DNA of 64,000 nt from Candidatus Falkowbacteria bacterium GW2011_GWF2_43_32. Lineage in GTDB: Bacteria; Patescibacteriota; Patescibacteriia; Patescibacteriales; UBA12465. Shown in pieces: positions 1 to 15,358 of this stretch (the stretch's first letter is position 1; every line of letters starts with the position of its first letter). The DNA lies in assembly GCA_000999715.1 (NCBI GenBank), contig LCGL01000001.1:323139-387138 (forward strand), written 5' to 3'. The translations under genes and the position numbers were made by a program. Below the pieces are notes generated by a model. It was given only the letters and a program-made list of their open reading frames with translations, was not told where the DNA came from and did not search any database.

Positions 1-304
1 CGACCACGACTTGTCTGTTTCCGATCTGAACCGAAACCGTGGGCGACATCTTTTTCAAACCGCGAAAACTGAAAGCTTTTTTTAAACCGTCTTTTCTCCG
101 ACCGGACGCTTTGGCCGCCGAATAAGCATAACCCAATTTATTAAGTAAGGTTATGCCCACCATGGGAAATTTTTGATCGGCCGCCGCTTTAAGAATGTCT
201 CCGGCTAAAATTCCCAGCCCGCCGGCATAATTATTCAAGTCCTCGGCCACGGCTATTTCCATGCTGAAATAGGCGACCACCGGCTGTTTCTTTTTCAAGG
301 TCAT
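1..304 (-). CDS. glgP: alpha-glucan phosphorylase (GlgP/GT35 family), N-terminal fragment; the gene continues beyond the window start
   Basis: Own translation from the ATG at 304 (minus strand): MTLKKKQPVVAYFSMEIAVAEDLNNYAGGLGILAGDILKAAADQKFPMVGITLLNK... This carries the YFSME..GGLG.LAGD N-terminal signature of alpha-glucan phosphorylases. It is missing from the ORF track because there is no stop codon in the window. Confidence 0.7.
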   Translation of the reverse strand, partial: MTLKKKQPVVAYFSMEIAVAEDLNNYAGGLGILAGDILKAAADQKFPMVGITLLNKLGYAYSAAKASGRRKDGLKKAFSFRGLKKMSPTVSVQIGNRQVVV

Positions 305-318
305 ATTTTTCCATTAAT

Positions 319-1560
319 TTAACCGAACATCAACACTTGCGGCCAAAATATCAACAACAAACCGATGGCCAGCATTAACAGGCCGCCAATCAAACGGGAG
401 GCGCGCGTATATTTGGTGGTCACGCCGGTTACCCGCAAAGTAATCATGGCCGCGAAGAAAACAAACAAATCATCCAACATGAAAATAAAAATATATAATG
501 CGATATAAGAATAGTGTTGCCATTTGGTCAGATCGCTCAACGCCAAGATCTGCGTATACACCGCCGGCAAACCGGCCGAACAAATCAACTCCACTAAATT
601 AACGGCAAAAGCCAAAATGATTATGCCTCCCAACGCCAACCAAAAACTAGGCAACTGCGTAATCGCCCGTAATCTCCCAAAAACTCTCTGTCTTTTTTCG
701 CCGCTGACAACTTTACAGCTGTCGTCTTTACGGACAAAAAATTCTTTCAAGCTGTACGCTCCGCCCAAGAGAGCAACCAATCCAATCAATATTCTCACCC
801 ACAAAACAAAACCTAAAAATAAAATCAAATTAAGCCAGGCGGCCATGAATACAAAATAAACCGAAGCCGAAGCGACAATGAAGGCAATTCCCAAAATCCA
901 CATCCTTTTCCGGTTCTGCATGCCCAATAACAAGCCGATTAAAAACAAAAGGGTCCACATGGCACAGGGGTTAAAACCGTCCAAAGCGCCCATAATCACC
1001 GTCAATACCGGTAAAGAAAAAGAATTTAAATCCACTCGTCCCAAGAAAGGAATGTCCATTTCCTTTTTTTCTTGTCCGCCCTCTTCCGTGACGTTCGCCG
1101 CTGTTTGGACATCATCGCCCGAAATCTCTTGATCAAACGTTGCCTCATCCTCCTTGTCCAAGCCGACAATGCCGGCCGTTACATTCGGACAAGTTTGTTC
1201 CAAACAAAAAGCGACGCGATCGCCAAGCTCCGCGGGACTGGAAGATTCGGAAAAACCGACAAAACTTTTATCGCCGATAATGGTAAACGGAATGCCCTCG
1301 ACTCTCGCGCCCAACTCTCGTCCGACTTTCTGCAAAAGCAAAGCGTTGCTCCGATTATTATAGATTTCAAAATCATGAACGCGTATTTGCGGATATTGTT
1401 GTTCCAACTTATCAAGATAAATTTCCTCTTTGGCACAATGCGGGCAACCGTCTCCCCAAAAAAAATAAATATCCAATTCATCGCCGGCCGAAGCAAAATT
1501 TGCGGTCGACAACAAAATAACGATTGCTATCAAAAAACCCCATATTTTTATTCTTTTCAT
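319..1560 (-). CDS. thioredoxin-fold domain fused to a CcdA/DsbD-like membrane thiol-disulfide transporter
   Basis: ORF track 319..1581. The N-terminal part has a signal/TM segment and WGDGCPHC (a CxxC thioredoxin/glutaredoxin motif). The C-terminal part has multiple TM segments with the FNPCAMW motif typical of the DsbD/CcdA family. I prefer the ATG at 1560 (MKRIKIWGF...) because the longer start overlaps the upstream gene. Confidence 0.65.
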   Translation of the reverse strand: MKRIKIWGFLIAIVILLSTANFASAGDELDIYFFWGDGCPHCAKEEIYLDKLEQQYPQIRVHDFEIYNNRSNALLLQKVGRELGARVEGIPFTIIGDKSFVGFSESSSPAELGDRVAFCLEQTCPNVTAGIVGLDKEDEATFDQEISGDDVQTAANVTEEGGQEKKEMDIPFLGRVDLNSFSLPVLTVIMGALDGFNPCAMWTLLFLIGLLLGMQNRKRMWILGIAFIVASASVYFVFMAAWLNLILFLGFVLWVRILIGLVALLGGAYSLKEFFVRKDDSCKVVSGEKRQRVFGRLRAITQLPSFWLALGGIIILAFAVNLVELICSAGLPAVYTQILALSDLTKWQHYSYIALYIFIFMLDDLFVFFAAMITLRVTGVTTKYTRASRLIGGLLMLAIGLLLIFWPQVLMFG

Positions 1561-1570
1561 ATTTTCTGTT

Positions 1571-2311
1571 TTAGTGATCAAGCAATTTCACGGCCGACAT
1601 CAAAACTATTCCCAAAATAAACACCACAAACAAGCTCATGGATTTTTTCAAGTTGGCTTCTTTCCGTATTTCCGGCATCAAGTCGGAGGCGGCGATATAA
1701 ATAAACCCGCCGGCGGCAAAAGGCAAAAGATACGGAATAATGCCCTCCAAAGAAAAGGAAATAAAATATCCGACTACGCCGCCCGCCACGACGGTCAGGG
1801 CGACCAAATAATTTACCAACAAAGCCTGGCCTCTTTTCAATCCGGCATGAATCAAAACGCCGAAGTCGCCTATCTCTTGAGGAATTTCATGCAAAGCGAT
1901 CGCTAAAGTTGTAGCCAGACCCAAACGAAAATCCACCAAAAAAGTGCTGGCGATAACCAAACCGTCAATAAAATTATGCAAAGAATCTCCGACCAAATTC
2001 ATATATCCGAAAGTGTGTACCGAACAATCGCCTTTATGACAATGGTGCCAAAACAATAACTTTTCCATGAAGAAAAAGAAAATAAAAGAGGCCAAAACTA
2101 TCAAATAAAGCCGATCGGCGGCGATTTTTCCGGCTGCTTCCGGCAAAAGATGCAAAAAAGCTCCGCCCATCAAAACTCCGGCCGAAAGAGCCAAAAGAAA
2201 TATCGTAATTTTATTCAAGGTTGTTTCTTTAAAATACAAAAACAAAACCGCCAGCCAAACACAAAGACTGATCGCCAGACAAGCTAAAATAATAATGAGC
2301 AACACTCCCAT
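1571..2311 (-). CDS. ZIP-family divalent metal (zinc) transporter
   Basis: 246-aa polytopic protein with the HEIPQEIGDFGVL motif and an HHCHKGDCSVH His-rich loop, both characteristic of ZIP/ZupT transporters. Confidence 0.8.
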   Translation of the reverse strand: MGVLLIIILACLAISLCVWLAVLFLYFKETTLNKITIFLLALSAGVLMGGAFLHLLPEAAGKIAADRLYLIVLASFIFFFFMEKLLFWHHCHKGDCSVHTFGYMNLVGDSLHNFIDGLVIASTFLVDFRLGLATTLAIALHEIPQEIGDFGVLIHAGLKRGQALLVNYLVALTVVAGGVVGYFISFSLEGIIPYLLPFAAGGFIYIAASDLMPEIRKEANLKKSMSLFVVFILGIVLMSAVKLLDH

Positions 2312-2329
2312 AGATTTATGTTAGAAGAT

Positions 2330-3019
2330 TTATTTTTTTATCACGGCCACATCAAAAGAAATCACCACCTGGTCGTCAATAACGTTATCGGCTAAATTAT
2401 CAAAAAAATTTCCCGATCCGTATTTGACTTCCCATTGCGTTCTATCCCAAGAAAATTGCGATTTAATTCTGGTCTCCTCGCCTTGTTGATAAATCGTCAA
2501 GGGCAAAGAAAGCTCCCGAACAGTATCTTTAACGGTTAATTCTCCGTTTACCGACACCACTCCGTCAATCATAATTTCAAACGATTCTAAAACTTGAAAT
2601 TTAATTGTCGGAAAATCGCTAACGGCGAAAAAATCTGCCGATTGCAAATGATTGGCCAAACCGTCTTGACCGCGACCGGATCCCGTCACATCAACGCGCA
2701 AACTGTTCATATCCAAAACTATCAGCCCGTCGCTAACCCTTCCCTCTTGAACCGTAAACGCCCCGGAACGAATAGCTACTGTGCCCAAATCGGAATAATC
2801 GGTTTTCAACGGCTTGCGCCCACTCCACATAATTCTGTCGCCTTTCTGAAAAAAATATTCTCCATCCGATAAATTCACGCCTCGCGCCGATTCCTTTTCC
2901 TGTTTTTCCGCATCGCCGACCAAAGCGGCTAAATTTTGATTATTCCCCTTATTTCTCAAAACCAAAAACCCAATCACCAACACAACTATGATCAACAAGC
3001 TATATAAAAAATATTTCAT
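2330..3019 (-). CDS. YceI-like domain protein with an N-terminal membrane anchor
   Basis: 229 aa with an N-terminal TM segment. The pattern F.....S.I.W.G.K.....H.G...NGELT..D..R...L.. resembles YceI-family lipid-binding proteins. Confidence 0.6.
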   Translation of the reverse strand: MKYFLYSLLIIVVLVIGFLVLRNKGNNQNLAALVGDAEKQEKESARGVNLSDGEYFFQKGDRIMWSGRKPLKTDYSDLGTVAIRSGAFTVQEGRVSDGLIVLDMNSLRVDVTGSGRGQDGLANHLQSADFFAVSDFPTIKFQVLESFEIMIDGVVSVNGELTVKDTVRELSLPLTIYQQGEETRIKSQFSWDRTQWEVKYGSGNFFDNLADNVIDDQVVISFDVAVIKK

Positions 3020-3103
3020 AAGTTAAAATGATTAAATTTAAATTAGATTTTAGTTATTATATGATAGCAAAAATATCATATTTTGAAAACCCGCCTCAAA
3101 TCC

Positions 3104-4306
3104 CTACAGATACCGCGGTAAACGGCGCTTGGTTTTCAGGCTGGGAACCTTGATACAATAGATTAAAGCCCAAAAAATCCGGGCCAAACGACTTCGCAAA
3201 TGCCAGCCCCAGAGATTGCCTAAGGCCGATTTTTTACCCAAAGTCAAAAATTCACCGCGATGCTTATAAACAAAAGGCCGCAAGGGTTTGTTGAGCACAA
3301 GTGCTTCAATGTTTCTCGCCGCCACGACAGCCTGTTGATTGGCTACTTGCGCCAATCCGGGAAGAGGTCCCCCGTTTACCAGCAAACAAGAACTGTCCCC
3401 TAAACACAGAACGTTACGATGACCTTTCATTAATAATTCCGGAGTAATTTCCAGCCGGCCATTAACCGCCACCGGCTGATTGCCTAAAAATTCAGGAGTT
3501 TGCGCTTTAAGACCCGCGGCCCAAATAATATTTTCGGCCATAATTTCTTGACCGTTTTGCAAAACAATCCCTCGCGGCGACAAAGATTCCGCCAAAGAAT
3601 TAAAAATAATTTCCACGCCGATTTTATCAAAACATTTTCGAGCTTCGGCTCTCATCCAAGCGGGAAAAGAGGCCAAAATTTCCTGTCCGCGACTAATCAG
3701 TTTTACCGAAAACTCATTATCGCGCAAATGACTGCCCGCACTCAAAAAATGTTTCTGTTGATTCAACAATTGTTCTTGAATATGGGCCGCCAGCTCGACT
3801 CCGGTGGGACCGGCGCCTAAAACGGCAAAAGATAACAGTTGTCGCCGACGTTGTTCGTCACTTTCTTGAGAAGCAAGCAATAAAGCTTTTTCAATTTTGT
3901 CGCTTAAGCGAAGGGCGTCGTCAATGTCTTGAAATTTATAAATTCGGGAGCTTTCTGCCGGAAAAAAAATATCAGCTTTAGCTCCGGTGGCAATAACCAA
4001 AATATCAAAAGTCAAAATCGTTTTTTTCAATCGGACTTGACGCCGCTCCAGATCAACGGCGATTATTTCTTGATGATAAAAAGTCGTCCGCTTATCCAAT
4101 AAGCTCACCAAAGGAATGGCCACCTCGTCCGATCGCAAACGACCGAAAATCAATTCGGGCAACAAAGGAGTAAACAAAAAATAATCTCGCCGATCTACCA
4201 AAGCCAGCTCTATCAGTCCGCGACGCTGAAGCGGCTTTAACAGTTTGGCGGTTTTAATCCCGCCGAATCCCGCTCCCAAAATGACGACTCTTTGTTTATT
4301 TGTCAT
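3104..4306 (-). CDS. ndh: type II NADH dehydrogenase / FAD-dependent pyridine nucleotide-disulfide oxidoreductase
   Basis: 400 aa with an N-terminal VVILGAGFGG Rossmann motif and a second GAGPTGVE dinucleotide-binding motif. The length and layout fit NDH-2. Confidence 0.75.
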   Translation of the reverse strand: MTNKQRVVILGAGFGGIKTAKLLKPLQRRGLIELALVDRRDYFLFTPLLPELIFGRLRSDEVAIPLVSLLDKRTTFYHQEIIAVDLERRQVRLKKTILTFDILVIATGAKADIFFPAESSRIYKFQDIDDALRLSDKIEKALLLASQESDEQRRRQLLSFAVLGAGPTGVELAAHIQEQLLNQQKHFLSAGSHLRDNEFSVKLISRGQEILASFPAWMRAEARKCFDKIGVEIIFNSLAESLSPRGIVLQNGQEIMAENIIWAAGLKAQTPEFLGNQPVAVNGRLEITPELLMKGHRNVLCLGDSSCLLVNGGPLPGLAQVANQQAVVAARNIEALVLNKPLRPFVYKHRGEFLTLGKKSALGNLWGWHLRSRLARIFWALIYCIKVPSLKTKRRLPRYL

Positions 4307-4334
4307 GGCCGAATTTTATCATAAATTGTCTTAA

Positions 4335-4364
4335 TAAAAAAGAGCTCCCGAAAGCTCATTTTTT
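4335..4364. terminator. bidirectional intrinsic terminator upstream of ndh
   Basis: Hairpin GAGCTCCCGAAAGCTC (4342-4357), flanked by an A-run on the left and TTTTTT on the right. Confidence 0.6.
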
Positions 4365-4416
4365 GTAAATATGGTATTTTCACCAACTATTTTTGGGCAT
4401 TAAACCATAAATTAAT

Positions 4417-4444
4417 ATAAAAAGCCCACGTTTTATAGTGGGCT
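4417..4444 (-). terminator. intrinsic terminator of mini-unit 1
   Basis: Minus strand reads AGCCCAC-TATAAAAC-GTGGGCT followed by TTTTTAT. Confidence 0.6.
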
Positions 4445-4480
4445 CTTGCCTTCTCCTTTAAAGGCATTAAACAGTTTGTG

Positions 4481-4582
4481 TTAATAACAACCCTGTTTCC
4501 CAGTCGTTTTCAACAACTCCCTCTTTTGGTGATTTCGTGGCGAGCCGCGAGAATTTTTAACACTTTTTCTAATGTACTTCAT
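4481..4582 (-). CDS. 33-aa highly basic small protein (mini-unit 1), function unknown
   Basis: Own translation: MKYIRKSVKNSRGSPRNHQKRELLKTTGKQGCY*. A GGAGG sequence lies 8 nt upstream of the ATG, which is rare in this window. The ORF has its own TTGACA-17-TATTAT promoter and its own terminator. It is too short for the ORF track. Confidence 0.45.
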   Translation of the reverse strand: MKYIRKSVKNSRGSPRNHQKRELLKTTGKQGCY

Positions 4583-4623
4583 GTCTTTTTCCTCCATATT
4601 AAGTTAATACTAAAGACATTTAA

Positions 4624-4652
4624 ATAATATATCTGTTATACCTTCTTGTCAA
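4624..4652 (-). promoter_or_regulatory. sigma70-type promoter of mini-unit 1
   Basis: Minus strand: TTGACA (4652-4647), 17-nt spacer, TATTAT (4629-4624). Confidence 0.6.
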
Positions 4653-4733
4653 TTGGTTTACTTTCTCACAAAGAATCTATATTTTTAAAACAAAAAATGA
4701 CCATAAAATTATTTTTATACACCCCCTTACGGG

Positions 4734-4793
4734 GTGGCTAACCGCAAAACTTGGCAAACTTTTTTGATGGAGTGCTTGATACATTAAAAAAAA
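4734..4793. repeat. conserved inter-unit module, copy M1
   Basis: Plus strand: gtggctaaccgcaaaacttggcaaacttttttgatggagtgcttgatacattaaaaaaaacc. The first 40 nt differ from M4 at only 2 positions. All four copies share the core AAACTTG(G/A)(C/A)AAACTTTTTTGAT. Confidence 0.85.
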
Positions 4794-5013
4794 CCACCTA
4801 CATGAGATGGTTTTTGTAAAATAGTTCTTTAAGATACCGCAGTGATATCGCAATCCGCAAAGAGCTTCGGCCCACCCTCACAGGATGATTTTTTTATGCC
4901 TTAGCTACAATTCTGGGTTATCAACTCTTAGTGAGGACTTCCCCTTTAATTAGGTTAACCATCTTGCGAGTGATGGTCAGATACTTTGCCTAACTTTCTC
5001 AAAAAGAACTATA
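4785..5013 (-). ncRNA. candidate non-coding RNA A (mini-unit 2), about 229 nt, unknown family
   Basis: A promoter (TTGACT-16-TAAGAT) lies upstream. The terminator hairpin AACCATCT-CATGT-AGGTGGTT plus a U8 run is at 4812-4784. No start codon with a usable ORF is present. The 5' end (5012-5003) is perfectly complementary over 10 bp to 4830-4821, just before the terminator. There is also an internal hairpin ACCATC/GATGGT. Confidence 0.5.
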
Positions 5014-5018
5014 TTTAA

Positions 5019-5046
5019 ATCTTAACATTAGTATTCAAAAAGTCAA
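5019..5046 (-). promoter_or_regulatory. sigma70-type promoter of mini-unit 2
   Basis: Minus strand: TTGACT (5046-5041), 16-nt spacer, TAAGAT (5024-5019). Confidence 0.5.
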
Positions 5047-5112
5047 TAGATTGTACAACATTAAACTTAAAACAAAAAATAATTCCTAAAAAGAAATTGT
5101 TTTTATATATGA

Positions 5113-5176
5113 GTGGCTATTCGAGAAACTTGAAAAACTTTTTTGATTAAATATTTGATAAATTGATATAAAAAAG
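5113..5176. repeat. conserved inter-unit module, copy M2
   Basis: Plus strand: gtggctattcgagaaacttgaaaaacttttttgattaaatatttgataaattgatataaaaaag. It differs from M3 at about 1 position over roughly 48 nt. Confidence 0.85.
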
Positions 5177-5199
5177 ACCCGCGATATTGTTACGGATCT
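5170..5199 (-). terminator. intrinsic terminator of mini-unit 3
   Basis: Minus strand: AGATCCG-(11-nt loop)-CGGGTCT followed by TTTTTTA. Confidence 0.6.
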
Positions 5200-5245
5200 T
5201 ACAGTTTTTATTTAAACATATTTTGAGGGCATGAGCTAATAGTGA

Positions 5246-5398
5246 TTAAACCTCAAAATTTTCCCTAATGGAGTAAAGAAACGCCAACATGAAAGCTGCG
5301 CCAGCGCAAGCTAGAGTTATAACTGATGCTTCAGACTTCCAGTAAAAAACAAAAATGCCAAAAAGAATTGCTGTAAAATAATTAAAGAATGTTTTCAT
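5246..5398 (-). CDS. 50-aa two-TM hydrophobic peptide (mini-unit 3)
   Basis: Codon-by-codon translation: MKTFFNYFTAILFGIFVFYWKSEASVITLACAGAAFMLAFLYSIRENFEV*. An AGGAG sequence lies 9 nt upstream of the ATG. The ORF has its own promoter, a roughly 115-nt leader and a terminator. Confidence 0.5.
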   Translation of the reverse strand: MKTFFNYFTAILFGIFVFYWKSEASVITLACAGAAFMLAFLYSIRENFEV

Positions 5399-5430
5399 AA
5401 CTTATGACTCCTATTTTTAATGTTAAATAT

Positions 5431-5486
5431 AATTAGATTAATTATTAAGTTTACTAACATTAATAGACTTAATAATTAATCTAATT
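5431..5486. promoter_or_regulatory. perfect 20-bp inverted repeat in the 5' leader of mini-unit 3
   Basis: aattagattaattattaagt (5431-5450) is the exact reverse complement of 5467-5486, with a 16-nt loop. It lies between the predicted start site (about 5512) and the SD/ATG (5398). Confidence 0.8.
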
Positions 5487-5519
5487 TTAACCTTTTTGTA
5501 ATGAACTATATAACTAAAT

Positions 5520-5548
5520 AATATATCACATATATTATATTTTGTCAA
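5520..5548 (-). promoter_or_regulatory. sigma70-type promoter of mini-unit 3 (extended -10)
   Basis: Minus strand: TTGACA (5548-5543), 17-nt spacer ending in TGTGA, TATATT (5525-5520). Confidence 0.6.
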
Positions 5549-5635
5549 TCAATTTATATTATTTAATACTGTTGAGCCACATTTTAACCTTACATAATAG
5601 AAAAACCGAGCTTTCGGACCCGTGCTTTCCTTAAT

Positions 5636-5929
5636 CTATTCCCAAAAAATTAATACCAATGAAACAACCCCCAACAAGAAACCGATGATTTGAATTCTAT
5701 TAATCGGCTCCTTATAAAGCACCATCCCCAATATTACTGCGATAATAGCCGACGCCACAGAAAAAATAATTGCTCCTCTTCCTAGTCCGGCTCCATTTTT
5801 AAGAGAAAACAACCAAAAAGAATTTGCCACCAAATAAAGAGCAAGGCTGATTATTGCAAACCAAATTATTTTTTTTAGCGACCACTCTTTTGCAAATACG
5901 TCAGCAACTGCTTCAAAAATTATTAACAA
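5636..5929 (-). CDS. SMR/EmrE-like small multidrug-resistance-family membrane protein, possibly 5'-truncated
   Basis: 97 aa with four TM segments. The motif IIFEAVADVFAKEW aligns with the EmrE TM1 segment ILAEVIGTTLMKF, including the membrane-embedded Glu. The start is a TTG with no SD, only 5 nt from module M3. Confidence 0.5.
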   Translation of the reverse strand: MLIIFEAVADVFAKEWSLKKIIWFAIISLALYLVANSFWLFSLKNGAGLGRGAIIFSVASAIIAVILGMVLYKEPINRIQIIGFLLGVVSLVLIFWE

Positions 5930-5934
5930 TAAAA

Positions 5935-5988
5935 GCGGAAAACTTGAAAAACTTTTTTGATTAAGTATTTGATAAATTGATATAAAGA
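5935..5988. repeat. conserved inter-unit module, copy M3 (left part missing)
   Basis: Plus strand: gcggaaaacttgaaaaacttttttgattaagtatttgataaattgatataaagag. It lacks the GTGGCTA.. left end found in M1, M2 and M4. The SMR-like ORF starts where that end would be. Confidence 0.85.
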
Positions 5989-6238
5989 GAGGGCTAATTG
6001 CTTAGCCCTCAAAAATTTAGAACTCGTTGAACTGCTTTCAAGGCTATTTCACTCTATTCGCCCCTTCGATTAATAAGGACGGTATCTTATTTTTGACTCC
6101 GCTAAAGCTGGCGCCCTAGGTTCACAGTCTCCCGCCTATTCTGCACATTACTAATCTATCTTCAAGCCAACATACAGGAATTGGACCCGCTGGAGATATA
6201 ATCTCTTGCGCCCATTGCGCTACATTGTTTCTAAATTT
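5985..6238 (-). ncRNA. candidate non-coding RNA B (mini-unit 5), about 255 nt, unknown family
   Basis: The promoter is TTGACA-17-TAATAT. The terminator-like hairpin GAGGGCTAAGCAATTAGCCCTC (6010-5989) has only a weak U-tract. No ORF longer than 9 codons is present. The 5' end (6238-6228) pairs over 11 bp with 6023-6013, just before the terminal hairpin, which is the same architecture as RNA A. Confidence 0.45.
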
Positions 6239-6244
6239 AATTAA

Positions 6245-6273
6245 ATATTATAAATAAAATCAACTTTTGTCAA
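6245..6273 (-). promoter_or_regulatory. sigma70-type promoter of mini-unit 5
   Basis: Minus strand: TTGACA (6273-6268), 17-nt spacer, TAATAT (6250-6245). Confidence 0.6.
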
Positions 6274-6346
6274 CAAAAATACAGCAAGATCTATTTTAAC
6301 CCTCATATCCCAGAAAAAAGCAAAATAGTTCATTTTTCCCAAATAG

Positions 6347-6410
6347 GTGGTTAATCGCAAAACTTGGCAAACTTTTTTGATGGAGTATTTGGTGAGTTGA
6401 TAAAAAAGAG
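6347..6410. repeat. conserved inter-unit module, copy M4
   Basis: Plus strand: gtggttaatcgcaaaacttggcaaacttttttgatggagtatttggtgagttgataaaaaagag. Confidence 0.85.
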
Positions 6411-6433
6411 ACCCTTGATGTTATCGCGGGTCT
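6402..6433 (-). terminator. intrinsic terminator of mini-unit 6
   Basis: Minus strand: AGACCC-(12-nt loop)-GGGTCT followed by CTTTTTTAT. Confidence 0.6.
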
Positions 6434-6459
6434 AGAAATTAGGTAATAAAATCTTTAAT

Positions 6460-6609
6460 TTACATAAACATCAGAGACATCAAAATAAATACCGCAGCAA
6501 TAGCCCACGCAAGCGATGATTTTTTAGATTTTTTTTTAAAACTAAAATATAAACAAAGAATACCGGTAATGAATACTAACACTTTTAAAATTAGAATAAA
6601 AATTTCCAT
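6460..6609 (-). CDS. 49-aa two-TM hydrophobic peptide (mini-unit 6)
   Basis: Codon-by-codon translation: MEIFILILKVLVFITGILCLYFSFKKKSKKSSLAWAIAAVFILMSLMFM*. It has the same TM-charged loop-TM layout as the 5246-5398 peptide. Its leader carries a degenerate version of the unit-3 palindrome. The SD is weak (AGAAA). Confidence 0.4.
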   Translation of the reverse strand: MEIFILILKVLVFITGILCLYFSFKKKSKKSSLAWAIAAVFILMSLMFM

Positions 6610-6717
6610 TATTTCTATTTTTTAATTTAACAATTCGATTAATTCTTAAATTTACTATTTATAATAAACTTAATAATTAACCCAATCGTTTTTTGTAAAA
6701 GAACTATATAACGAAAT

Positions 6718-6746
6718 ATCATATCACATTTACTATTTTTTGTCAA
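6718..6746 (-). promoter_or_regulatory. sigma70-type promoter of mini-unit 6 (extended -10)
   Basis: Minus strand: TTGACA (6746-6741), 17-nt spacer ending in TGTGA, TATGAT (6723-6718). Confidence 0.6.
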
Positions 6747-6838
6747 TTAATTTGTCTTCCCACTAGGGGGTAACAAGACCAAAACAAAAAATAACCCCAA
6801 TCCGCCAGCCGGCGGAGGAGTTATTTTCGCTAATATTA

Positions 6839-7057
6839 GGGTGCCTACTGGGAGTATCTCACTCAGCCGCCGCCGGAAACGCGGCGGCTTCGCTCGTCCT
6901 GGGTTGGCGCCGAGCCCTGCGCCAGCTCGGGTTCGTCGACGCTCGTCCGCTCATTTCGGCTTCCGCCTCAACTCGCGTCTCGCTTCCAACCTGTTCAACT
7001 TCCCGGCTAACGCCGACAGTAATAAAAGAACGCGCAAATGCGCGTTTTTTTATTACT
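6839..7057 (-). repeat. tRNA-His trailer module: hairpin, inverted T-arm copy, GC-rich spacer, 17-bp repeat of the tRNA 3' end
   Basis: gggtgcctactgggagt occurs at 6839-6855 and again at 7058-7074 inside the tRNA (17/17). The hairpin is at 7018-7057. gttcaacttccc (6993-7004) is an inverted T-arm copy. The spacer at 6856-6992 is GC-rich. Confidence 0.85.
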
Positions 7058-7058
7058 G

Positions 7059-7130
7059 GGTGCCTACTGGGAGTTGAACCCAGACTATCGGGACCACAAC
7101 CCGACGTTCTACCGCTAAACTATAGGCACC
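7059..7130 (-). tRNA. tRNA-His (anticodon GUG) with encoded G-1
   Basis: Cloverleaf read by eye: GGTGCCTA acceptor including G-1:C73, anticodon stem TCGGG/CCCGA, loop TTGTGGT, T-arm TGGGTTCAACTCCCA. Confidence 0.85.
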
Positions 7131-7169
7131 ATGATTATATTTTAACGTATCTTTAACGATCGTTAAACG

Positions 7170-7241
7170 TACGCCCGGGGGGAGTCGAACCCTCATCTAG
7201 AGCTTAGAAGGCTCCCGTTCTATCCGTTGAACTACGGGCGC
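7170..7241 (-). tRNA. tRNA-Arg (anticodon UCU)
   Basis: Acceptor GCGCCCG/CGGGCGT, anticodon stem GGAGC/GCTCT, loop CTTCTAA, T-loop TTCGACT. Confidence 0.8.
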
Positions 7242-7363
7242 AAAAATAATCCGTAAAAAATAATTAGGAAATTTTCCTCCCTAATTATTGTCTTATATTA
7301 ATAAAAATATTCATTTTTGTCAAACTGCTAATAAATCATTATCTGTTTGCCGATAAGCCTCTT

Positions 7364-8173
7364 TTATTCTATCACTTCTCTTTGCCGTAAGACCTCAAAA
7401 ATAATGACCGCGGCCGCCACTGAAACATTGAGGGAGTCGATTCCCTTGTTCATCGGAATTTTAATCAGCTCGTCGGCGTCTTTCAACCACTTAGCACTTA
7501 AGCCTTCGGACTCCGATCCTAAAATAATCGCCGTCGGCCCGCTCAAATCAACTTGCGTATAATTTTTAGAAGCGCCGGTGGCCGCGCCAAAGCTTTTTAT
7601 TTTCTTTTCTTTCAACCATTTAATCGTTTCGACGATAGACGCGCTGACGACTTTTTCCGTAAAAACAAGTCCTTCGCTGGCTCTAATAACATTCGGATTA
7701 TAAATGTCCGTTTGATTGTCGTTAACAATCACCGCCGCCGCGCCGGCCGCATAGGCGGTTCGGATTATCGCCCCGAGGTTTCCCGGTTTTTCCACCGCCT
7801 CCAGAACAACAATTAATGGATTATCGTTTAGTCTGATGTCTTTAAAGGTCGTTTCTTTTGTTTCGGCAATCGCCAAAAATCCCTCCGGCTTTTCTTTATA
7901 TGAAATCTTATGAAAAGCCGATTCGGAAACTTCAATTATTTTTTCCGTAGCCACTCCGAAAAATTTATCGCTGTTCCCGACAGTGCCCTTTATCAAGCTC
8001 GGACAATAAAACAAATTATTGATTTTCAATCCGGCCTCAATCGCCAATTCAATTTCGCGCGCACCGTCAATAATAATCAAACCGCGAGTTTTTCTTTCGC
8101 CGGTCTTTTTAAGTCGCACCGCTTCCTTGATTGTCTGATTGCTCAGGCTATTTATTGTTTTCATAATTTTCAA
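7364..8173 (-). CDS. SpoU/TrmH-family RNA 2'-O-methyltransferase (RlmB-like)
   Basis: 269 aa. The C-terminal part has the SpoU motifs LEAVEKPGNLGAIIRTA, ILGSESEGLS and IPM.G.IDSLNVSVAAAV. Confidence 0.8.
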   Translation of the reverse strand: MKIMKTINSLSNQTIKEAVRLKKTGERKTRGLIIIDGAREIELAIEAGLKINNLFYCPSLIKGTVGNSDKFFGVATEKIIEVSESAFHKISYKEKPEGFLAIAETKETTFKDIRLNDNPLIVVLEAVEKPGNLGAIIRTAYAAGAAAVIVNDNQTDIYNPNVIRASEGLVFTEKVVSASIVETIKWLKEKKIKSFGAATGASKNYTQVDLSGPTAIILGSESEGLSAKWLKDADELIKIPMNKGIDSLNVSVAAAVIIFEVLRQREVIE

Positions 8174-8263
8174 ACTGCTTTTATTATATCAACAAACCCT
8201 CGGCATTACAAAAGCCCCCGAAAACTCGGGGGCCCTGAATAATCAAATTATAAAAACTAAATC

Positions 8264-8851
8264 TTATTTACTGCCCATAGCGCGAGTATAGGCGCTGGTA
8301 CCGACACTATAATTTTTATTACTTTTCTCCGGCAAATCGGCCAAGTCAACCTCAATGTCAACATATTTTTTAACGGAATCTAAAACCGAAAACATGTCCA
8401 CTTCTTTCCCCGAATTAAATAAGGTAATAGCATTTTTTAACACTCCAAAAGATTTGGCCCTTTTTTCTTCAACCAATTTTTCGCTACCCAGGGCTTTGCC
8501 GATGCCTTTTAAAATTCCACCCAAACCATGTTTAACTTCTTTTTCTTTGTCCGACCAAGCTTTAATTTTTTCTTTAATTTCGTTAAGCTTCAGCGCGGTC
8601 AATTCTCTGATTTTTTCCTTATCTTCGCCTTTTTCCTGACCGCCGATTTCCTTGATTTCTTCCCGTGTTTTTCCTAAACTTTGTTTTTCCGAGGCCGCAA
8701 TGGCCGCCGCTTGCTCTACGGAGCGATTATCCGCCGAAGAATCCGCTTCTAAAACCTCCGTCATTGTGGCCGAAAGATCTTTAGAAATCTCCTTTTCTTT
8801 GGAAGCTTCTTGGTTGCTAACGCCGGGCACTTTTTCAAAATTGTCTAACAT
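8264..8851 (-). CDS. hypothetical K/E-rich protein
   Basis: 195-aa ORF that is charged and probably coiled-coil. I recognised no family. Confidence 0.4.
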   Translation of the reverse strand: MLDNFEKVPGVSNQEASKEKEISKDLSATMTEVLEADSSADNRSVEQAAAIAASEKQSLGKTREEIKEIGGQEKGEDKEKIRELTALKLNEIKEKIKAWSDKEKEVKHGLGGILKGIGKALGSEKLVEEKRAKSFGVLKNAITLFNSGKEVDMFSVLDSVKKYVDIEVDLADLPEKSNKNYSVGTSAYTRAMGSK

Positions 8852-9054
8852 ATGCTTTTGATTATCTATAATAAGGCTTTTTCAAGCATTTTTAATAATG
8901 TTATTATAACACAAAACTCAAAAATAATCAAGAGCAACCAATTAAGCGCTTATTATGGCCCTAATATCAGCTAAAATTATTAAAAATTTCTAAAAAATCG
9001 ACTAAAATGATATAATAAAAAGGCTATTTTAAATTCTACCTCTTTAACTATTAT

Positions 9055-11844
9055 ATGCCTATTCCTCAGCTACGTTCAAGAAGTTACGGCTCTTGGCACA
9101 ATCAAAAAAATTATTCTCGCCCCAAAAATTCTCCTTTGATCCACCGCAAAAAGAAGCAAAAATTAATAAAAAAATTGATTTCCTTCGCCTTGGTGTCGGG
9201 GCTTTTCTTGCTAATTTTCGGATCAATTTATATTTCCTTGATTTCCCGTAATCTGCCTAACCCGAATGAATTGATTAACCGCGAGGTGGCACAAAGCACC
9301 AAAATATATGATCGCACCGGCGAACATGTTTTATATGAAATCAGCGGCGATCAAAAAAGAACTTTGGTCGCGCTTCAAGATATTCCCGACAACGTCAAGC
9401 AGGCAACAATCGCGATTGAGGACAAAAATTTTTATACTCACGGCGCTTTCAGCGTTTGGGCCATGTTTCGCACCGCCGTCACCAATGTTTTGTTTGGACG
9501 CAGTGCCGGCGGCTCCACCCTCACTCAACAATTTATAAAAAATGCCGTTCTGACTCCGGAAAAAACCATTACCAGAAAAATCAAAGAGTTGATTCTGGCT
9601 TATCGTCTGGAAAAGAAATTTTCCAAAGACGAAATCTTACAGATGTATTTAAATGAAATTCCTTACGGTTCCAACGCTTACGGCGTGGAAGCTGCCAGTC
9701 AAAAATACTTCGACAAGAATGTGAAAGATTTAGCTCTGGAAGAAGCGGCCATCTTGGCGGCTATAGTACAAATGCCGACCCGCTATTCTCCCTATGGCCC
9801 CAACAAGGACATTCTTTTGGGACGTAAAGATTATGTTTTAACTTTGCTGGCCGAACAAGGTTATATTTCCGAGCAAGAGCGCGATGAAGCGCAAAAAAAA
9901 GAAATAGTCTTCAAAAATCCGGGGACCAAAATTACCGCCCCCCATTTTGTCATGTACATAAAAGAAATTGTCGCCGAAAAATACGGCGAACAAATGGTTG
10001 AACAAGACGGTTTAAAAATTTATACCACCCTTGATCTTTACAAACAAAAAATTGCCGAAGAGGTTATCGCCGCACGTTCCGAAGATTATCCTAAAAAATA
10101 TAATGCCAATAACGCCGCCCTGATTTCTCTCGATCCCAAAACCGGACAAATTCTGGCCATGGTCGGTTCGCGAGATTATTTTGACGATTCCATCAACGGT
10201 CAGGTAAATGTCACCACGCGTCCCCGTCAACCGGGCTCTTCCATGAAGCCGATAGTATACGCCGCTTTATTTGAAAAAGGTTACACTCCAAACACAATTT
10301 TATATGATACTCTCACCAATTTCTCCACCAACAGCACCCCTTATTCTCCCCATAATTACGATGATAAAGAGCGTGGTCCGGTAACCGTTCGTCAGGCTCT
10401 GGCTGGCTCTTTAAATATCCCCGCTGTTAAAGCGATTTATTTAGCCGACATCAACACCGTTATCGATTTGGCTGAAAATATGGGCTACACCACTCTTTAT
10501 CCGCGCAATCGCTTCGGGCTCTCGTTGGTATTGGGCGGCGGAGAAGTTAAACTTTTGGAACATACAAACGCCTATAGTGCCTTCGCCCGCGACGGTCAAA
10601 TCAGCGCTGTAACGGGAATTTTGAAAATTGAAGACAAAAACGGCCGCATTATTGAAGAATACCGGGCGACCGAAAAAAAGGCTTTGAGTTCCAAGGTCGC
10701 CAGAATGATTAACAATGTTTTATCGGACAATCAGGCGCGCGCCTATATTTTCGGCGAAAAAAACTACCTGACGCTAGGTAATCGGCCGGTAGCCGCCAAA
10801 ACCGGTACCACCAACGACTATCATGATGCTTGGACGATTGGTTACACCCCTTCGTTGGTAACGGGCGTCTGGGTGGGCAACAGCGACAATAAAGCGATGA
10901 CCGGACGTGCCGACGGCAGTATTTTAGCCGCTCCCATTTGGCACGATTTTATGGACAAAGTTTTAGGCGACACCCCACAGGAAACATTCAAAGAACCGGA
11001 AGACTATAAAACCGGAAAACCTGTTTTAGACGGAGAAGTTTCCCTGGGACAAAACGGCTCGCCGATTCATCACAGCATTCTTTATTACGTGAATAAAGAT
11101 GATCCTCTTGGTTCAACACCAAATAACCCCGATAAAGATCCGCAATTTACCGCTTGGGAAAATTCTGTTCAAGAATGGGCAAATAAAAACGCCACTTCTT
11201 CTCCGGACGGCTCCGGCAACGGCGAGTTTAATGTCCCGGAAAACCTTCCGACGCTTAAAATAGATTCCCCGACAGCCAACGAAACCATTACCGTCAGCGA
11301 ACTAAAAATATCTTTAACGGCGGACGCGCCGCGTGGCATCAACCGGACGGAATATTATATTAACGGCAACCTCTGGGAATCTCGTTGGAATCACCCGGAA
11401 CCGTTTATTAAAGAAATAAATTTTTTAAATAACGGTTATCATTCTCTCCGGGTCAAGGTTTGCGATGATGTTAAAAATTGCCGCGAAGAAGAAATTAACT
11501 TTAATCTTTTAATAAAAAATAATCCGGTCAGTGCCGGAAAAAATTCTCTTATTCTGTCCGGTCTAACGACCGGAGTGGCCGCCACCGCCCTTGATTTTCC
11601 TCTCGCCCTGGAATTGCAAATTGCCAAGCCGGAACGTGTGGCTGAAATCCGTTTATTTTCCAGAAATTCCGATACCGGCGAAGTTCTTCTTATCGGCGAA
11701 TTTGCCGGACCGTTCGGACAAACAATTTCTACCGATACGGGGCCGGCTCCGGCCGTCGGCTCTTACGCCGTTTATGGAGAACTCAAAGATTGGAACGGAG
11801 AAACGATAACCAGTAATGAAATAAAAATAACCGTCAGCCAATAA
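9055..11844 (+). CDS. class A penicillin-binding protein (PBP1A-type transglycosylase/transpeptidase) with a C-terminal extension
   Basis: 929 aa with an N-terminal TM segment. GT51 motifs are EDKNFYTHGAFS and RKIKELILAYRLE. Transpeptidase motifs are SSMKP and KTGTT. Confidence 0.9.
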   Translation: MPIPQLRSRSYGSWHNQKNYSRPKNSPLIHRKKKQKLIKKLISFALVSGLFLLIFGSIYISLISRNLPNPNELINREVAQSTKIYDRTGEHVLYEISGDQKRTLVALQDIPDNVKQATIAIEDKNFYTHGAFSVWAMFRTAVTNVLFGRSAGGSTLTQQFIKNAVLTPEKTITRKIKELILAYRLEKKFSKDEILQMYLNEIPYGSNAYGVEAASQKYFDKNVKDLALEEAAILAAIVQMPTRYSPYGPNKDILLGRKDYVLTLLAEQGYISEQERDEAQKKEIVFKNPGTKITAPHFVMYIKEIVAEKYGEQMVEQDGLKIYTTLDLYKQKIAEEVIAARSEDYPKKYNANNAALISLDPKTGQILAMVGSRDYFDDSINGQVNVTTRPRQPGSSMKPIVYAALFEKGYTPNTILYDTLTNFSTNSTPYSPHNYDDKERGPVTVRQALAGSLNIPAVKAIYLADINTVIDLAENMGYTTLYPRNRFGLSLVLGGGEVKLLEHTNAYSAFARDGQISAVTGILKIEDKNGRIIEEYRATEKKALSSKVARMINNVLSDNQARAYIFGEKNYLTLGNRPVAAKTGTTNDYHDAWTIGYTPSLVTGVWVGNSDNKAMTGRADGSILAAPIWHDFMDKVLGDTPQETFKEPEDYKTGKPVLDGEVSLGQNGSPIHHSILYYVNKDDPLGSTPNNPDKDPQFTAWENSVQEWANKNATSSPDGSGNGEFNVPENLPTLKIDSPTANETITVSELKISLTADAPRGINRTEYYINGNLWESRWNHPEPFIKEINFLNNGYHSLRVKVCDDVKNCREEEINFNLLIKNNPVSAGKNSLILSGLTTGVAATALDFPLALELQIAKPERVAEIRLFSRNSDTGEVLLIGEFAGPFGQTISTDTGPAPAVGSYAVYGELKDWNGETITSNEIKITVSQ

Positions 11845-11853
11845 AACTATAAC

Positions 11854-12978
11854 TTATTGTCCGATAGGCATAACGATATAAAGATAGTTATTGTCTTTTT
11901 CCGGTTTTAATAAAAACGGTTGTTTGTCGTTAAGAAGTCCGATTTTAACACGATCGTCATCAATATTATTTAGGCCGTCAAGTAAATAGCGGAAATTAAT
12001 GGTAATCTCGTTATCGCCACCGCTTACTTCCGCGGCCACTTCTATCTGACTTTCTCCGCTTGCCCCGGAAGACGCGGAAACGATAACTTTATTTTTATTA
12101 AAATTCAAAGTGACATCATTAAGGCCGGTTTTGGAAAACAGGGCGGCGGCTTTAACAGCGCGAAGTAGTTCTGTGCGTTCAATAATTGCCTCCATTTGGC
12201 TTTGCGCGGGAATGATTTGCTTATAGTCCGGATAATGACCGTTAACCAGACGGGAAATCAGACTAACCGAATCAATTGTAAATAAAATTTGATTATCGGA
12301 TAAATAAATTTTAATTTCCGGCGTTCCTTCGATATTACCGGAATCAAAATTATTTAAGATTCTCAATAATTCTTGAATCGTCTTGGCGGGAACAATAACT
12401 TTATGTTCTGCACTACTTTCATCTGCTAGAGCGGCAATTTCTTTTTCCGCCAAACGATAACTGTCCGTGGCCGCCAAACTTAGGCGGTTTTTAATAAAAG
12501 AAAACAAAACGCCGGTTAACTCTACCCTGTTTTCGCTGGTCGCGACCGCAAAAACAACGCTATTAAGGGCTCTCTTTAGGTCGTCCGCCTGACAAACATA
12601 GGGATTGTCTTTGGGAATGGTGGGGATTAAAGGAAATTCTTTGGCCTCCTCACCTTTTATTTTTGTTTTATAGTTTCCGCACTCAACCGCCAACTCGCTT
12701 TCTTTAACTTCAACTTTTACTTTTTCTCCGCTATTCAATAAATTAACATATTCGGTAATCAGTTTGGCGTCCACCGTAAACTGTCCGTCTTTTTCGATTT
12801 TTCCGCGAACCTGATGAACGACCCCAATTTCCAGGTTGGTGCTTACCAGTTCAATATTTCCTCCCTCGACTTTAATTAAAATATTATTAAGAATCGGAAG
12901 ATTAATATTCTTGGCGGTGGCATGACCGACAATATTTAAACCGCGTTTTAAATTTTCTTGTAAACCGATGAAACGCAT
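11854..12978 (-). CDS. dnaN: DNA polymerase III beta sliding clamp
   Basis: 374 aa located immediately downstream of dnaA. It has the typical MRF....L...L start and the three-domain length of a sliding clamp. Confidence 0.9.
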   Translation of the reverse strand: MRFIGLQENLKRGLNIVGHATAKNINLPILNNILIKVEGGNIELVSTNLEIGVVHQVRGKIEKDGQFTVDAKLITEYVNLLNSGEKVKVEVKESELAVECGNYKTKIKGEEAKEFPLIPTIPKDNPYVCQADDLKRALNSVVFAVATSENRVELTGVLFSFIKNRLSLAATDSYRLAEKEIAALADESSAEHKVIVPAKTIQELLRILNNFDSGNIEGTPEIKIYLSDNQILFTIDSVSLISRLVNGHYPDYKQIIPAQSQMEAIIERTELLRAVKAAALFSKTGLNDVTLNFNKNKVIVSASSGASGESQIEVAAEVSGGDNEITINFRYLLDGLNNIDDDRVKIGLLNDKQPFLLKPEKDNNYLYIVMPIGQ

Positions 12979-13241
12979 ATAGTTATAATTGTTATATTAT
13001 TTATTATATTAATTAATAATAACAATAAGGGAGTGGATAATTTTTACTTTTGGCGATTTTTTTAAAATTTATTAAGGATTTTTTAGATTTTCATGTTGAT
13101 AACTCTCGGGGCGTTTTGTTGATTACTTTTGACAACCGGTGGACAGAAAAAATATTTTTTAAGTTATTCACAAAACACTTTTTTTATCCACAAAGAAATT
13201 AACAAGATATCAACAAAATATTTGGTTAAAAACGGGCGGTT
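12979..13241. other. candidate oriC (DnaA-box cluster plus AT-rich tract) in the dnaA-dnaN intergenic region
   Basis: One perfect TTATCCACA lies at 13184-13192. Near-matches (8/9) are TTATTCACA at 13164-13172, aGTGGATAA at 13032-13040 and TGTtGATAA at 13094-13102. The tract at 12979-13030 is almost pure A/T. Confidence 0.6.
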
Positions 13242-14630
13242 TTAATAAGCGGCGGTAAATAACTGTCGGATAGAATCTACCTCTTGCTTTATCTTTTTGT
13301 TTTCCAACTCTTTTATTTCTTGGGAAATTTTGTTGTAAGAGTGCATGGCGGTGGTGTGGTCGCGCCCGCCCAGTTCGGCTCCGATTGCCGGATAAGACGT
13401 TCCCAGCTCTTCTCTAATCAAGAAAATGGCGATTTGTCTGGGCCAAACCAACTCCTTTTTGCGACTTTCCCCGGTCAGATCTTTATAATTTAAATTATAA
13501 AATTTGGCGGTTGTTTCAATAATTTCTTTGGGAGTCAGGGACCTTAATTGAATATTGGAAACATAGTCATTAAGAATCTCTTTGACCGTTTTAAGAGACG
13601 GAGACAATCCTTTAAATTGGTGCGAGGCAATAACCTTTGTTAAAGCTCCTTCCAGTTCTCGAATGTTGTTTTGAACGTGATCAGCAATGTAGGATAAGAT
13701 TTCTTTATCTAAAGGAAAGTTTTTTTCCAATGACTTTTTTTCTAAAATAGCAATTTTAGTTTCTATGTCCGGCTTGCCGATGTCGGCCACCATCCCCGAT
13801 TCAAACCGGGAAATCAGCCGTTTTTCAATCGCCGGCAAGGATTTTGGCGGACGATCGGAGGTCAAAACAATTTGCTTGTCGTTTTGTTGCAGTTCATTGA
13901 AGGTATGAAAGAATTCTTCTTGAGTTCCGTCTTTCCCACCCATAAATTGCACGTCGTCCACCAAAAGCAAGTCAACATTACGATAAAGATTTTTAAATTC
14001 TTTTGCTTTTCCGGTTTTTACGGCCTGGATATAATTATTGGTGAATTTTTCACTGGTGGTATATAATATTTTGTCACTGGTTTTGGCCACGACGCCGCCG
14101 ATCGCCTGAAGAAGATGGGTTTTTCCCAAGCCGACACCACCGTAAATAAACAAAGGGTTGTAAGATTTACCGAGATTTTCCGCCACAGCCAAGCAAGCGG
14201 CATGGGCCAACTCGTTGCCGCGTCCGACAATAAAATTTTCAAAGACATAGCGCGGATTTAGCCCGAAGCGGTTGCTTCCGCCATTCGATTCCCGAGAAAC
14301 GGAAGAATCGTTTTTAATCGTTTGAATGGGAGTCTCGATTTTTGTTTCACTTTTAGTCGCGAGAGGCGCTTGTCCGCCGCGTCGTAACTCGATTTTATAA
14401 ATAATTTCTTGGATCGGTTTTTTGGAAACGTTTTCCAGCGCACCGAGAATGTTTTTATGATATTTTTCCTCCAGCCATTTTTTTACAAAGGCGTTGGGAA
14501 CGCAAATAATGACTCGGTCATTTTCAAAAGAGGAAAGAAAGGTATCTTTAAACCAGGTAACAAAATTTGCTCGAGACAGCCCTATTTCAATTTCACCCAA
14601 AACGGCTTGCCATATTTGTTCGTTGGTCAT
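13242..14630 (-). CDS. dnaA: chromosomal replication initiator DnaA
   Basis: 462 aa with Walker A GGVGLGKTHL, the DDVQF box and the C-terminal DNA-binding motif GGRDHTT..H. Confidence 0.95.
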   Translation of the reverse strand: MTNEQIWQAVLGEIEIGLSRANFVTWFKDTFLSSFENDRVIICVPNAFVKKWLEEKYHKNILGALENVSKKPIQEIIYKIELRRGGQAPLATKSETKIETPIQTIKNDSSVSRESNGGSNRFGLNPRYVFENFIVGRGNELAHAACLAVAENLGKSYNPLFIYGGVGLGKTHLLQAIGGVVAKTSDKILYTTSEKFTNNYIQAVKTGKAKEFKNLYRNVDLLLVDDVQFMGGKDGTQEEFFHTFNELQQNDKQIVLTSDRPPKSLPAIEKRLISRFESGMVADIGKPDIETKIAILEKKSLEKNFPLDKEILSYIADHVQNNIRELEGALTKVIASHQFKGLSPSLKTVKEILNDYVSNIQLRSLTPKEIIETTAKFYNLNYKDLTGESRKKELVWPRQIAIFLIREELGTSYPAIGAELGGRDHTTAMHSYNKISQEIKELENKKIKQEVDSIRQLFTAAY

Positions 14631-14979: not shown

Positions 14980-14995
14980 GCTAGACAAGCGTCGC

Positions 14996-15340: not shown

Positions 15341-15358
15341 TTGGAATTGATTAACAGT

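Follow-up and report, generated by a model that had tools for sequence, protein, structure and literature searches.

In a 64-kb stretch of the genome of Candidatus Falkowbacteria bacterium GW2011_GWF2_43_32, one of a group of very small groundwater bacteria (the stretch is hereafter called the window), we identified a gene for a structured non-coding RNA, RNA B, whose core is a complete and canonical copy of the L1 stalk of 23S ribosomal RNA (rRNA). On the ribosome, this stalk binds protein L1 (uL1) and holds the departing tRNA. RNA B is predicted to be transcribed from the minus strand (5985..6240) as an RNA of ~250 nt, including its terminator hairpin, and lies in an array of mobile cassettes downstream of a tRNA-His gene. 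We regard the identity of the core as solid, and we are also highly confident that RNA B is an autonomous mobile non-coding RNA and not the leader of the adjacent SMR/EamA-like gene. We classify it as rRNA mimicry in the form of an autonomous, mobile, full-domain RNA gene. Our confidence in its mechanism is moderate to low: we give a probability of roughly 0.55 to the reading in which RNA B is a mobile, off-ribosome mimic of the L1 stalk that would bind uL1 and/or the elbows of tRNAs.

The Rfam model of the bacterial large-subunit (LSU) rRNA (RF02541, LSU_rRNA_bacteria) aligned its positions 2126-2215 with positions 6156-6068 of the minus strand when the whole window was searched (50.4 bits, E ~1e-12), and the match was reproduced on positions 1-18000 of the window. 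It covers the distal part of helix 76 (H76), H77 and H78, with nearly all of the highly conserved consensus nucleotides present. The score is barely above the threshold (50.4 vs 50) and the match was not reported when only 5900-6320 or 4400-7300 was searched, so we sought independent confirmation. With the Escherichia coli 23S rRNA as query, nhmmer found a single match in the window, between 6183-6075 and E. coli positions 2072-2181 (E = 2.7e-4, or 1.2e-5 when the search was confined to the cassette array), and pairwise alignment placed 74 nt of RNA B without gaps against E. coli 23S positions 2108-2181. A blastn search of plasmids returned ten records matching nucleotides 92-168 of RNA B at 75-85% identity, the top one of which was confirmed to lie inside a 23S (rrl) gene of Thalassospira, with 76% identity to RNA B. 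Searches of RNA B against E. coli genomes by blastn, and locally by blastn with a 7-nt word, gave no match because the longest common word is 6 nt. Apart from the LSU model, no curated Rfam family matched 5985-6240 at E ≤ 5, and none reached its gathering score. Each of the RNA B sequences described below kept 27 to 30 of the 32 near-universal positions of bacterial stalks.

The stalk arm occupies 6060..6168 (minus strand). It consists of H76 with a base extension (GGCUU/GGGGC), H77 (6136-6132/6081-6077; GGCGG/CCGUC) and H78 (6129-6095), and it matches the ribosomal L1 stalk in its helices and their lengths, in the internal loop and the GCGCCAGC apical loop of the full-length H78, and in both joining segments. 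The joining segments, GUGCAGAAUAG and (A/U)AGAUACC, are those that form the T-loops of the stalk, and both are kept in all homologs. The putative uL1 recognition elements (H77, the joining loop and the initial pairs of H78), GGCGGGAGACU...GGAGUC...AGAUACCGUCC, are likewise kept in the four homologs. RNA B differs from the ribosomal stalk in its setting: it lies outside any rRNA gene, is borne on a cassette, and is predicted to be transcribed from a dedicated promoter to a dedicated terminator as an RNA of ~250 nt. Its H76 closes into a scaffold of several private helices, where the ribosomal H76 connects to H75 and H79, and it is flanked by the promoter, private hairpins and the terminator. 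Neither Rfam nor nhmmer found a 23S gene or a second LSU match in the window, which encodes a 16S gene at 41659-43065. Hence, the stalk copy is not part of an rRNA operon.

The copy does not resemble the stalk of the host lineage. Exact matches of five proteins encoded in the window place this DNA in Candidatus Falkowbacteria bacterium GW2011_GWF2_43_32 (473-kb contig). Falkowbacteria correspond to order BM507 of the class ABY1 in GTDB (PMC12641178 supplement), and ABY1 were reported to have lost H78 yet kept der and rplA, the gene of uL1 (PMC12641178). The same study reported that the L1 stalk, uL1 and the GTPase Der co-evolve and have been partly lost in the lineage (PMC12641178). Der is encoded in the window (TIGR03594, 422 bits). 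The 23S stalks of the two entries of the published alignment that we could place in BM507 (GCA_001778165.1 and GCA_001780285.1; PMC12641178) have intact H76, H77 and joining segments, and their H78 is a stub of 3-4 bp. The stalk core of RNA B is 49-57% identical to these two stalks and 62-75% identical to the full-length stalks compared (lineages of the Candidate Phyla Radiation (CPR), E. coli and Thalassospira), with 70-75% for those of many lineages. The core was thus not copied recently from the rRNA of the host. Nor does any donor lineage stand out: in the comparison with CPR stalks none was clearly closest, and all lay within 62-75% identity.

An earlier note on this DNA, made from the sequence alone, had proposed a discrete structured non-coding RNA with its own promoter, its own terminator and a helix closing its ends, and this description holds. 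The promoter that it named is present as a sigma-70-type site at 6245..6273 (minus strand; TTGACA 6273-6268, a 17-nt spacer and TAATAT 6250-6245; score 10/12), and the start predicted from it, at about 6240-6238, coincides with the first base of the closing helix. The -35 box, the -10 box and their spacing to the closing helix are kept in three related loci, L029, L018 and L060 (L-numbers designate the related loci that we fetched). The closing helix, P1, pairs AAAUUUAGAA (6229..6238, minus strand) with UUCUAAAUUU (6013..6022), just before the terminator, both in the minimum free energy (MFE) fold and in the consensus. The note was right about this helix but not about its length, which is 10 bp (6238-6229/6022-6013) instead of 11 because A6228 and G6023 are mismatched. 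All of its ten pairs are paired in all four homologs (100% of cells). Three pairs vary, in each case to a G.U pair, so the pairing fits the minus strand only. The terminal hairpin, too, was correctly placed: GAGGGCTAAGCAATTAGCCCTC (5989..6010, minus strand), an intrinsic terminator, has 9 bp and a 4-nt loop, and is followed by the U-rich tail TCTTTATATC. It is kept across homologs with one compensatory pair. The U-tract is indeed weak in the window, as had been remarked; those of the homologs are longer. On the minus strand the body of RNA B contains no open reading frame (ORF) of at least 20 aa, in line with the non-coding body claimed before, and short ORFs (29-39 aa) occur only at its edges or in antisense orientation. 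GC content rises to 48-49% in the interior, compared with 15-30% in the neighbouring intergenic DNA; the note had seen this enrichment but missed that it marks H76-H78 of 23S rRNA.

To find homologs, we scanned public metagenome contigs for the cassette repeat and genome contigs for a motif specific to RNA B. Three further distinct sequences were found, all full-length: L029 2612-2346 (minus strand), L018 1712-1975 (plus strand, with an identical copy in L037) and L060 1064-1330 (plus strand), the last in a Patescibacteria metagenome-assembled genome (MAG). The genome-contig scan yielded one true homolog (L060) and 45 chance matches. Two RNA B patterns gave only chance matches or none in viral contigs and none in a phage collection, and the many arrays reached through homologs of a neighbouring 4Fe-4S cassette and of the RlmB-like gene contained no further RNA B. 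The alignment of the four sequences begins at the -35 box, extends through the terminator and averages 82% identity per column; their stalk cores are 76-93% identical. Conservation extends along the whole unit: promoter, closing helix, T-loop-like hairpin, stalk, a 12-nt loop and terminator. The protein cluster of the cassette neighbouring the L018 copy includes a member named as Falkowbacteria.

In the RNAalifold consensus of the four sequences, 97.4% of the pair cells are standard pairs, a proportion that falls to 36-49% when the partners are slid by one to three columns. Both sides change in six pairs, a number reached by 4 of 500 shuffles, and the covariation score is 0.237, against 0.179 ± 0.016 in the shuffles. 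Covariation is present in H76 and H78, and compensatory changes also occur in the terminator and in a private hairpin of the scaffold, GCGC-AAUGG-GCGC (6208..6220, minus strand). This hairpin is found in three of the four homologs (it is absent from L060) and shows a compensatory change from C-G to U-A in L018. It is followed by a hairpin of variable length, GAGAU-UAU-AUCUC (6193..6205, minus strand), which extends to ~10 bp in L029, L018 and L060 according to alignments and single-sequence folds. Next comes a T-arm-like hairpin, GCGGG-UCCAAUU-CCUGU (6174..6190, minus strand), with a 5-bp stem and a 7-nt loop, whose stem is 100% paired in the homologs. Its loop has U at position 1 and A at position 5 (the L029 version is GGGUUCGAUUCC) and, on inspection, looks T-loop-like. 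Beyond the stalk lies the 12-nt loop AAAGCAGUUCAA (6027..6038, minus strand), which is identical in all four homologs and is closed by a weak 4-bp helix seen only in a three-sequence consensus. Its GUUCA could pair with the UGAAC/UGAAU of the H78 internal loop.

A Rifle metagenome contig (L003) agrees base for base with the window over positions 6022-5007 and diverges upstream. In its positions 1-40, AAAAATTTAGA is directly followed by TTCTAAATTTTT, i.e., the two arms of the closing helix are joined without the body of RNA B. This contig could represent an allele lacking RNA B or an assembly artefact.

RNA B moves as a cassette of its own. On the minus strand, the window encodes in this order an RlmB/TrmH-like methyltransferase gene (7364-8173), tRNA-Arg(tct), tRNA-His(gtg) and a series of cassettes separated by a ~65-nt repeat with the consensus ...ATCAAAAAAGTTTTCCAAGTTTTGCGATTAGCCACCC. 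The repeat copy upstream of RNA B (6346..6412, minus strand) ends the preceding cassette, which carries a small ORF. The downstream copy, found by repeat search, lies at 5934..5985, and further copies at 5177-5113 and 4795-4733 bring the total to four. This synteny and the repeat, in as many as six copies, recur in ~35 of the fetched loci (e.g., L018 135-4235 and L116 1182-4628), always downstream of the RlmB-like gene, tRNA-Arg(tct) and tRNA-His(gtg) and a few kb from dnaA-dnaN. The units between repeats measure 0.35-2 kb, and nearly all of them encode one or two ORFs in the direction of the array. Among ~25 distinct inter-repeat cassettes, the only ones devoid of ORFs are RNA B (in the window and L018) and a second unit of the window, RNA A. 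The terminus of the repeat, TAGCCACCC, resembles the 3' end of tRNA-His, TAGGCACCC, and in the window the unit next to tRNA-His closes with 17 nt that repeat the tRNA 3' end exactly. Both features fit a stepwise, site-specific insertion of the cassettes at tRNA-His, as we infer.

In the window, L018 and L029, RNA B is bounded by the repeat, has the orientation of the array and lies within the same synteny. Its position varies: it comes first after tRNA-His in L029, and further along, between repeats, in the other two cases. The L060 copy lies outside any recognisable array, with only a degenerate remnant of the repeat after it. The gene that follows RNA B encodes an SMR/EamA-like protein in the window, a 4Fe-4S protein in L018 and a 339-aa ORF in L029, whereas in L060 it is a DUF1801-like ORF with its own promoter. 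Since the downstream gene differs in every homolog, a dedicated leader role is ruled out and RNA B must move as its own cassette.

The genes neighbouring the array that we scanned encode no integrase, and no IntI is adjacent to it in the window. Locus L111, from a Falkowbacteria MAG (GCA_037132255.1), has ~2 kb past its array a gene (9141-10847) for a protein of 568 aa in which a GNAT acetyltransferase domain is joined to a large serine recombinase domain, a candidate for the cassette recombinase. A viral contig (IMGVR_UViG_3300002091_000153, L004 14147-14185) carries a 26-nt exact match to the repeat core, ATCAAAAAAGTTTTTCAAGTTTTGCG, in an intergenic region adjoining phage-like genes.

The array resembles those of integrons in its single orientation, its mostly single-gene units, the repeated site between them and the variation of its content among strains; rare cassettes without ORFs exist in integrons too. 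However, its ~65-nt repeat lacks the imperfect inverted-repeat design of attC: the consensus contains direct repeats (AAGUUUU twice, and AUCAA motifs) and no inverted-repeat core R''-L''/L'-R'. Moreover, the starting point of the array is tRNA-His (its 3' end) and not attI/intI, and its cassettes bear their own promoters and terminators.

What might a mobile L1 stalk do? uL1 binds H76-H78 and also short mRNA mimics of this site, by which it regulates its own expression (PMC10931766), and its N-terminus contacts H78 (PMC12641178). In the stalk, a pair of interdigitated T-loops docks the elbow of the tRNA, a device that also works in RNase P and in the T-box (PMC4810234). RNA B retains both the uL1-contact and the T-loop elements. 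In our favoured reading, the independently transcribed RNA of ~250 nt would fold so that the stalk is set in a scaffold closed by pairing of its 5' and 3' ends. The free RNA would then offer a binding site for uL1 and, along with it, a uL1-RNA platform on which tRNA elbows may dock, and would work as a decoy, a sponge or a small ribonucleoprotein (RNP) away from the ribosome. As the ribosomal site of the host appears to lack most of H78, the affinity of uL1 for RNA B may equal or exceed that for the ribosome, and RNA B would then be an effective sponge or a distinct small RNP.

Several observations weigh against this reading. The folding energy of RNA B is unremarkable (z = -1.73, and -1.75 to -2.7 across the four homologs), so that the case for its structure rests on homology and covariation, and with four homologs the covariation statistics are thin. 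Variation affects 6 of the 32 near-universal stalk positions and 23 of the 57 others (p = 0.058), a suggestive but marginal difference given four sequences. RNA B is also rare: the related loci, ~1 Mb in all and 35 of them with the repeat, contain 4 distinct sequences. No match to E. coli L1 or L11 was found by tblastn in the window or in the loci fetched by then, and that the host has uL1 and a truncated H78 is deduced from PMC12641178 and from the two related genomes. Finally, no benefit of an L1 decoy to the cell or to the mobile element is evident.

The mimic reading overlaps with one that makes tRNA, and not uL1, the relevant ligand: the T-loop platform of the stalk would grip the elbow of a tRNA or tRNA-like molecule, with or without uL1, and RNA B would be a sponge, a sensor or a scaffold. 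We consider this unlikely, even if it survives better than the other alternatives. The retention of both joining segments in all homologs is consistent with it, the same motif is functional in three unrelated RNA contexts, with more predicted (PMC4810234), and the T-arm-like hairpin could be counted in its favour. Yet RNA B has no conserved element resembling a specifier or able to pair with NCCA (the candidate UGGC is UGAC in L018), nor any link to a tRNA-related gene. Furthermore, the joining segments are also kept in the stalk of the host lineage, and what RNA B adds to them is H78, which contacts uL1 rather than tRNA. The double T-loops of T-box Stem I and of RNase P are the same portable device for docking tRNA elbows (PMC4810234), but they are convergent and have no sequence homology to the stalk, whereas RNA B is homologous to the stalk itself. 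It has no specifier, antiterminator or catalytic domain. No T-box model of Rfam matched at E ≤ 5, there is no conserved UGGN bulge, and the downstream genes are unrelated. ARAGORN and the Rfam tRNA models found nothing in 5985-6240. We also considered a tRNA-like cloverleaf for the 5' half of RNA B and rejected it: the spacings do not fit, no tRNA model matches, and the D-arm-like hairpin is absent in L060.

RNA B could instead be a fragment of a 23S gene or transcript that was caught by the cassette machinery and is now drifting without function. The abundance of rRNA makes it the foremost template for accidental capture, and the borderline score of the RF02541 match (unreported on short sub-regions), the rarity of RNA B and its ordinary fold stability would all be expected of such a relic. 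A drifting fragment, however, should not conserve a promoter, its spacing to the start, a terminator and a scaffold of ~140 nt unrelated to rRNA, and these are kept together in four genomes at 18-25% divergence. The compensatory changes seen in H76 and H78 and also in the GCGC hairpin and terminator, the retention of the universal stalk nucleotides and the dissimilarity to the truncated stalk of the host lineage point in the same direction. We thus find a neutral relic improbable.

Two further explanations are contradicted by the accessory, variable-position distribution of RNA B and by the synteny. In the first, RNA B would be a piece of split rRNA that assembles onto the 50S subunit and supplies the full stalk, or H78, in trans. 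The contrast between the stub of the Falkowbacteria 23S and the full H78 of RNA B invites this idea, for which the conserved extras (the 12-nt loop and the T-loop hairpin) could be docking sites, but we deem it very improbable: RNA B is an accessory cassette of variable position that is absent from most related arrays, including those of strains of related species, its ends pair with each other and so offer no strands to the 23S rRNA, and the site is already occupied, as the 23S rRNA of the host lineage keeps its own H76, H77 and stub. The second, scarcely credible, is the fallback of the earlier note, in which RNA B is a long 5' untranslated region, i.e., a cis-acting leader or riboswitch regulated at the terminator, of the SMR/EamA-like gene (5929-5636): although this ORF lacks a dedicated promoter and its start codon falls in the repeat immediately past the terminator, whose U-tract is weak in the window, the three homologs precede unrelated genes and all have strong terminators with long U-tracts, a cassette-boundary repeat intervenes, no alternative sequence able to form an antiterminator was seen, and the ORF itself looks truncated at its 5' end by comparison with EmrE.

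The SMR/EamA-like ORF (5636-5929, minus strand) uses a TTG start codon within the cassette repeat. It presumably lacks ~8 N-terminal residues relative to EmrE and may represent a cassette truncated at the 5' end, with read-through as its sole means of expression, if it is expressed.

Among known RNA systems, the autoregulatory sites of uL1 are the closest in principle, as they imitate the 23S uL1 site off the ribosome (PMC10931766). These operators (rplK-rplA leaders and archaeal L1 operons) are short irregular hairpins in the 5' untranslated region of the L11/L1 operon and act in cis, whereas RNA B presents the whole stalk, stands alone away from rplK/rplA and would act in trans. The bacterial Y RNAs (YrlA) also have a closing stem formed by the ends and a module borrowed from the translation apparatus: they are 100-200-nt non-coding RNAs with paired 5' and 3' ends and a tRNA-like T-arm module (PMC4201824). 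RNA B differs from them in having no match to the Y RNA models of Rfam and no Ro60/Rsr context, and its borrowed module is an rRNA domain. Judged by their defining features, RNA B is thus neither a 23S gene nor a uL1 leader, neither a T-box nor a tRNA, and not a classical integron cassette. To our knowledge, RNAs that imitate rRNA occur only as short cis-acting operators in the mRNAs of ribosomal proteins; a complete rRNA domain that is its own gene and moves as a cassette would be a different use of mimicry. Our full-text searches of the literature for stand-alone mimics of the L1 stalk or of rRNA, and for integron-like arrays in Patescibacteria, returned nothing equivalent.

We tentatively suggest, as a possibility that we rate as doubtful, that RNA B founds a class of horizontally mobile RNAs made of ribosome parts, in which a full-length stalk encoded in trans and uL1 form an RNP away from the ribosome while H78, the uL1-contacting helix, has eroded in the 23S rRNA of the host lineage. 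This RNP might divert uL1, serve as a buffer for its free form or trap deacylated tRNA, and mobile cassettes would then be tied to a lineage-specific remodelling of the CPR ribosome. RNA B gives a handle on the fate of uL1 and on the handling of E-site tRNA as H78 shrinks, and it may be a fourth natural context for the double T-loop device that binds tRNA elbows. It also indicates that the hypervariable arrays at tRNA-His can carry RNA genes. Even an inert RNA B would document the capture of an rRNA fragment and its long-term retention by a cassette system.

The other cassette without ORFs, RNA A (4789-5046, minus strand), has a TTGACT-16-TAAGAT promoter, a closing helix and a terminator, with a folding z of -2.90. 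The earlier note grouped RNA A and RNA B into one class, a proposal that our results do not support, since the two have only this generic layout (promoter, closing helix, terminator) in common. No homolog of RNA A turned up in the related loci (~1 Mb), nor did RNA A match Rfam, and we rejected rRNA mimicry in its case, the only similarity being to 16S rRNA and non-significant (E = 1.7).

Directly after tRNA-His, the window contains a GC-rich (~65%) unit of ~220 nt (6839-7057, minus strand; MFE z = -3.89) that starts with a terminator hairpin and finishes with the 17 nt of the local tRNA-His 3' end, copied exactly. No Rfam family matched this unit. It is kept in other Falkowbacteria (L117-L126, e.g., L120 3822-4066), with conserved blocks and a compensatory hairpin, and is present in one, two or at least three tandem copies among strains with identical RlmB.

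Two paralogous cassettes (5246-5560 and 6460-6760, minus strand) encode hydrophobic peptides of 49-50 aa. Both have a strong TTGACA-17 promoter with a TG-extended -10 box and, in the 5' untranslated region, a near-perfect palindrome of 30 nt (5428-5489 and 6632-6693) that resembles an operator.

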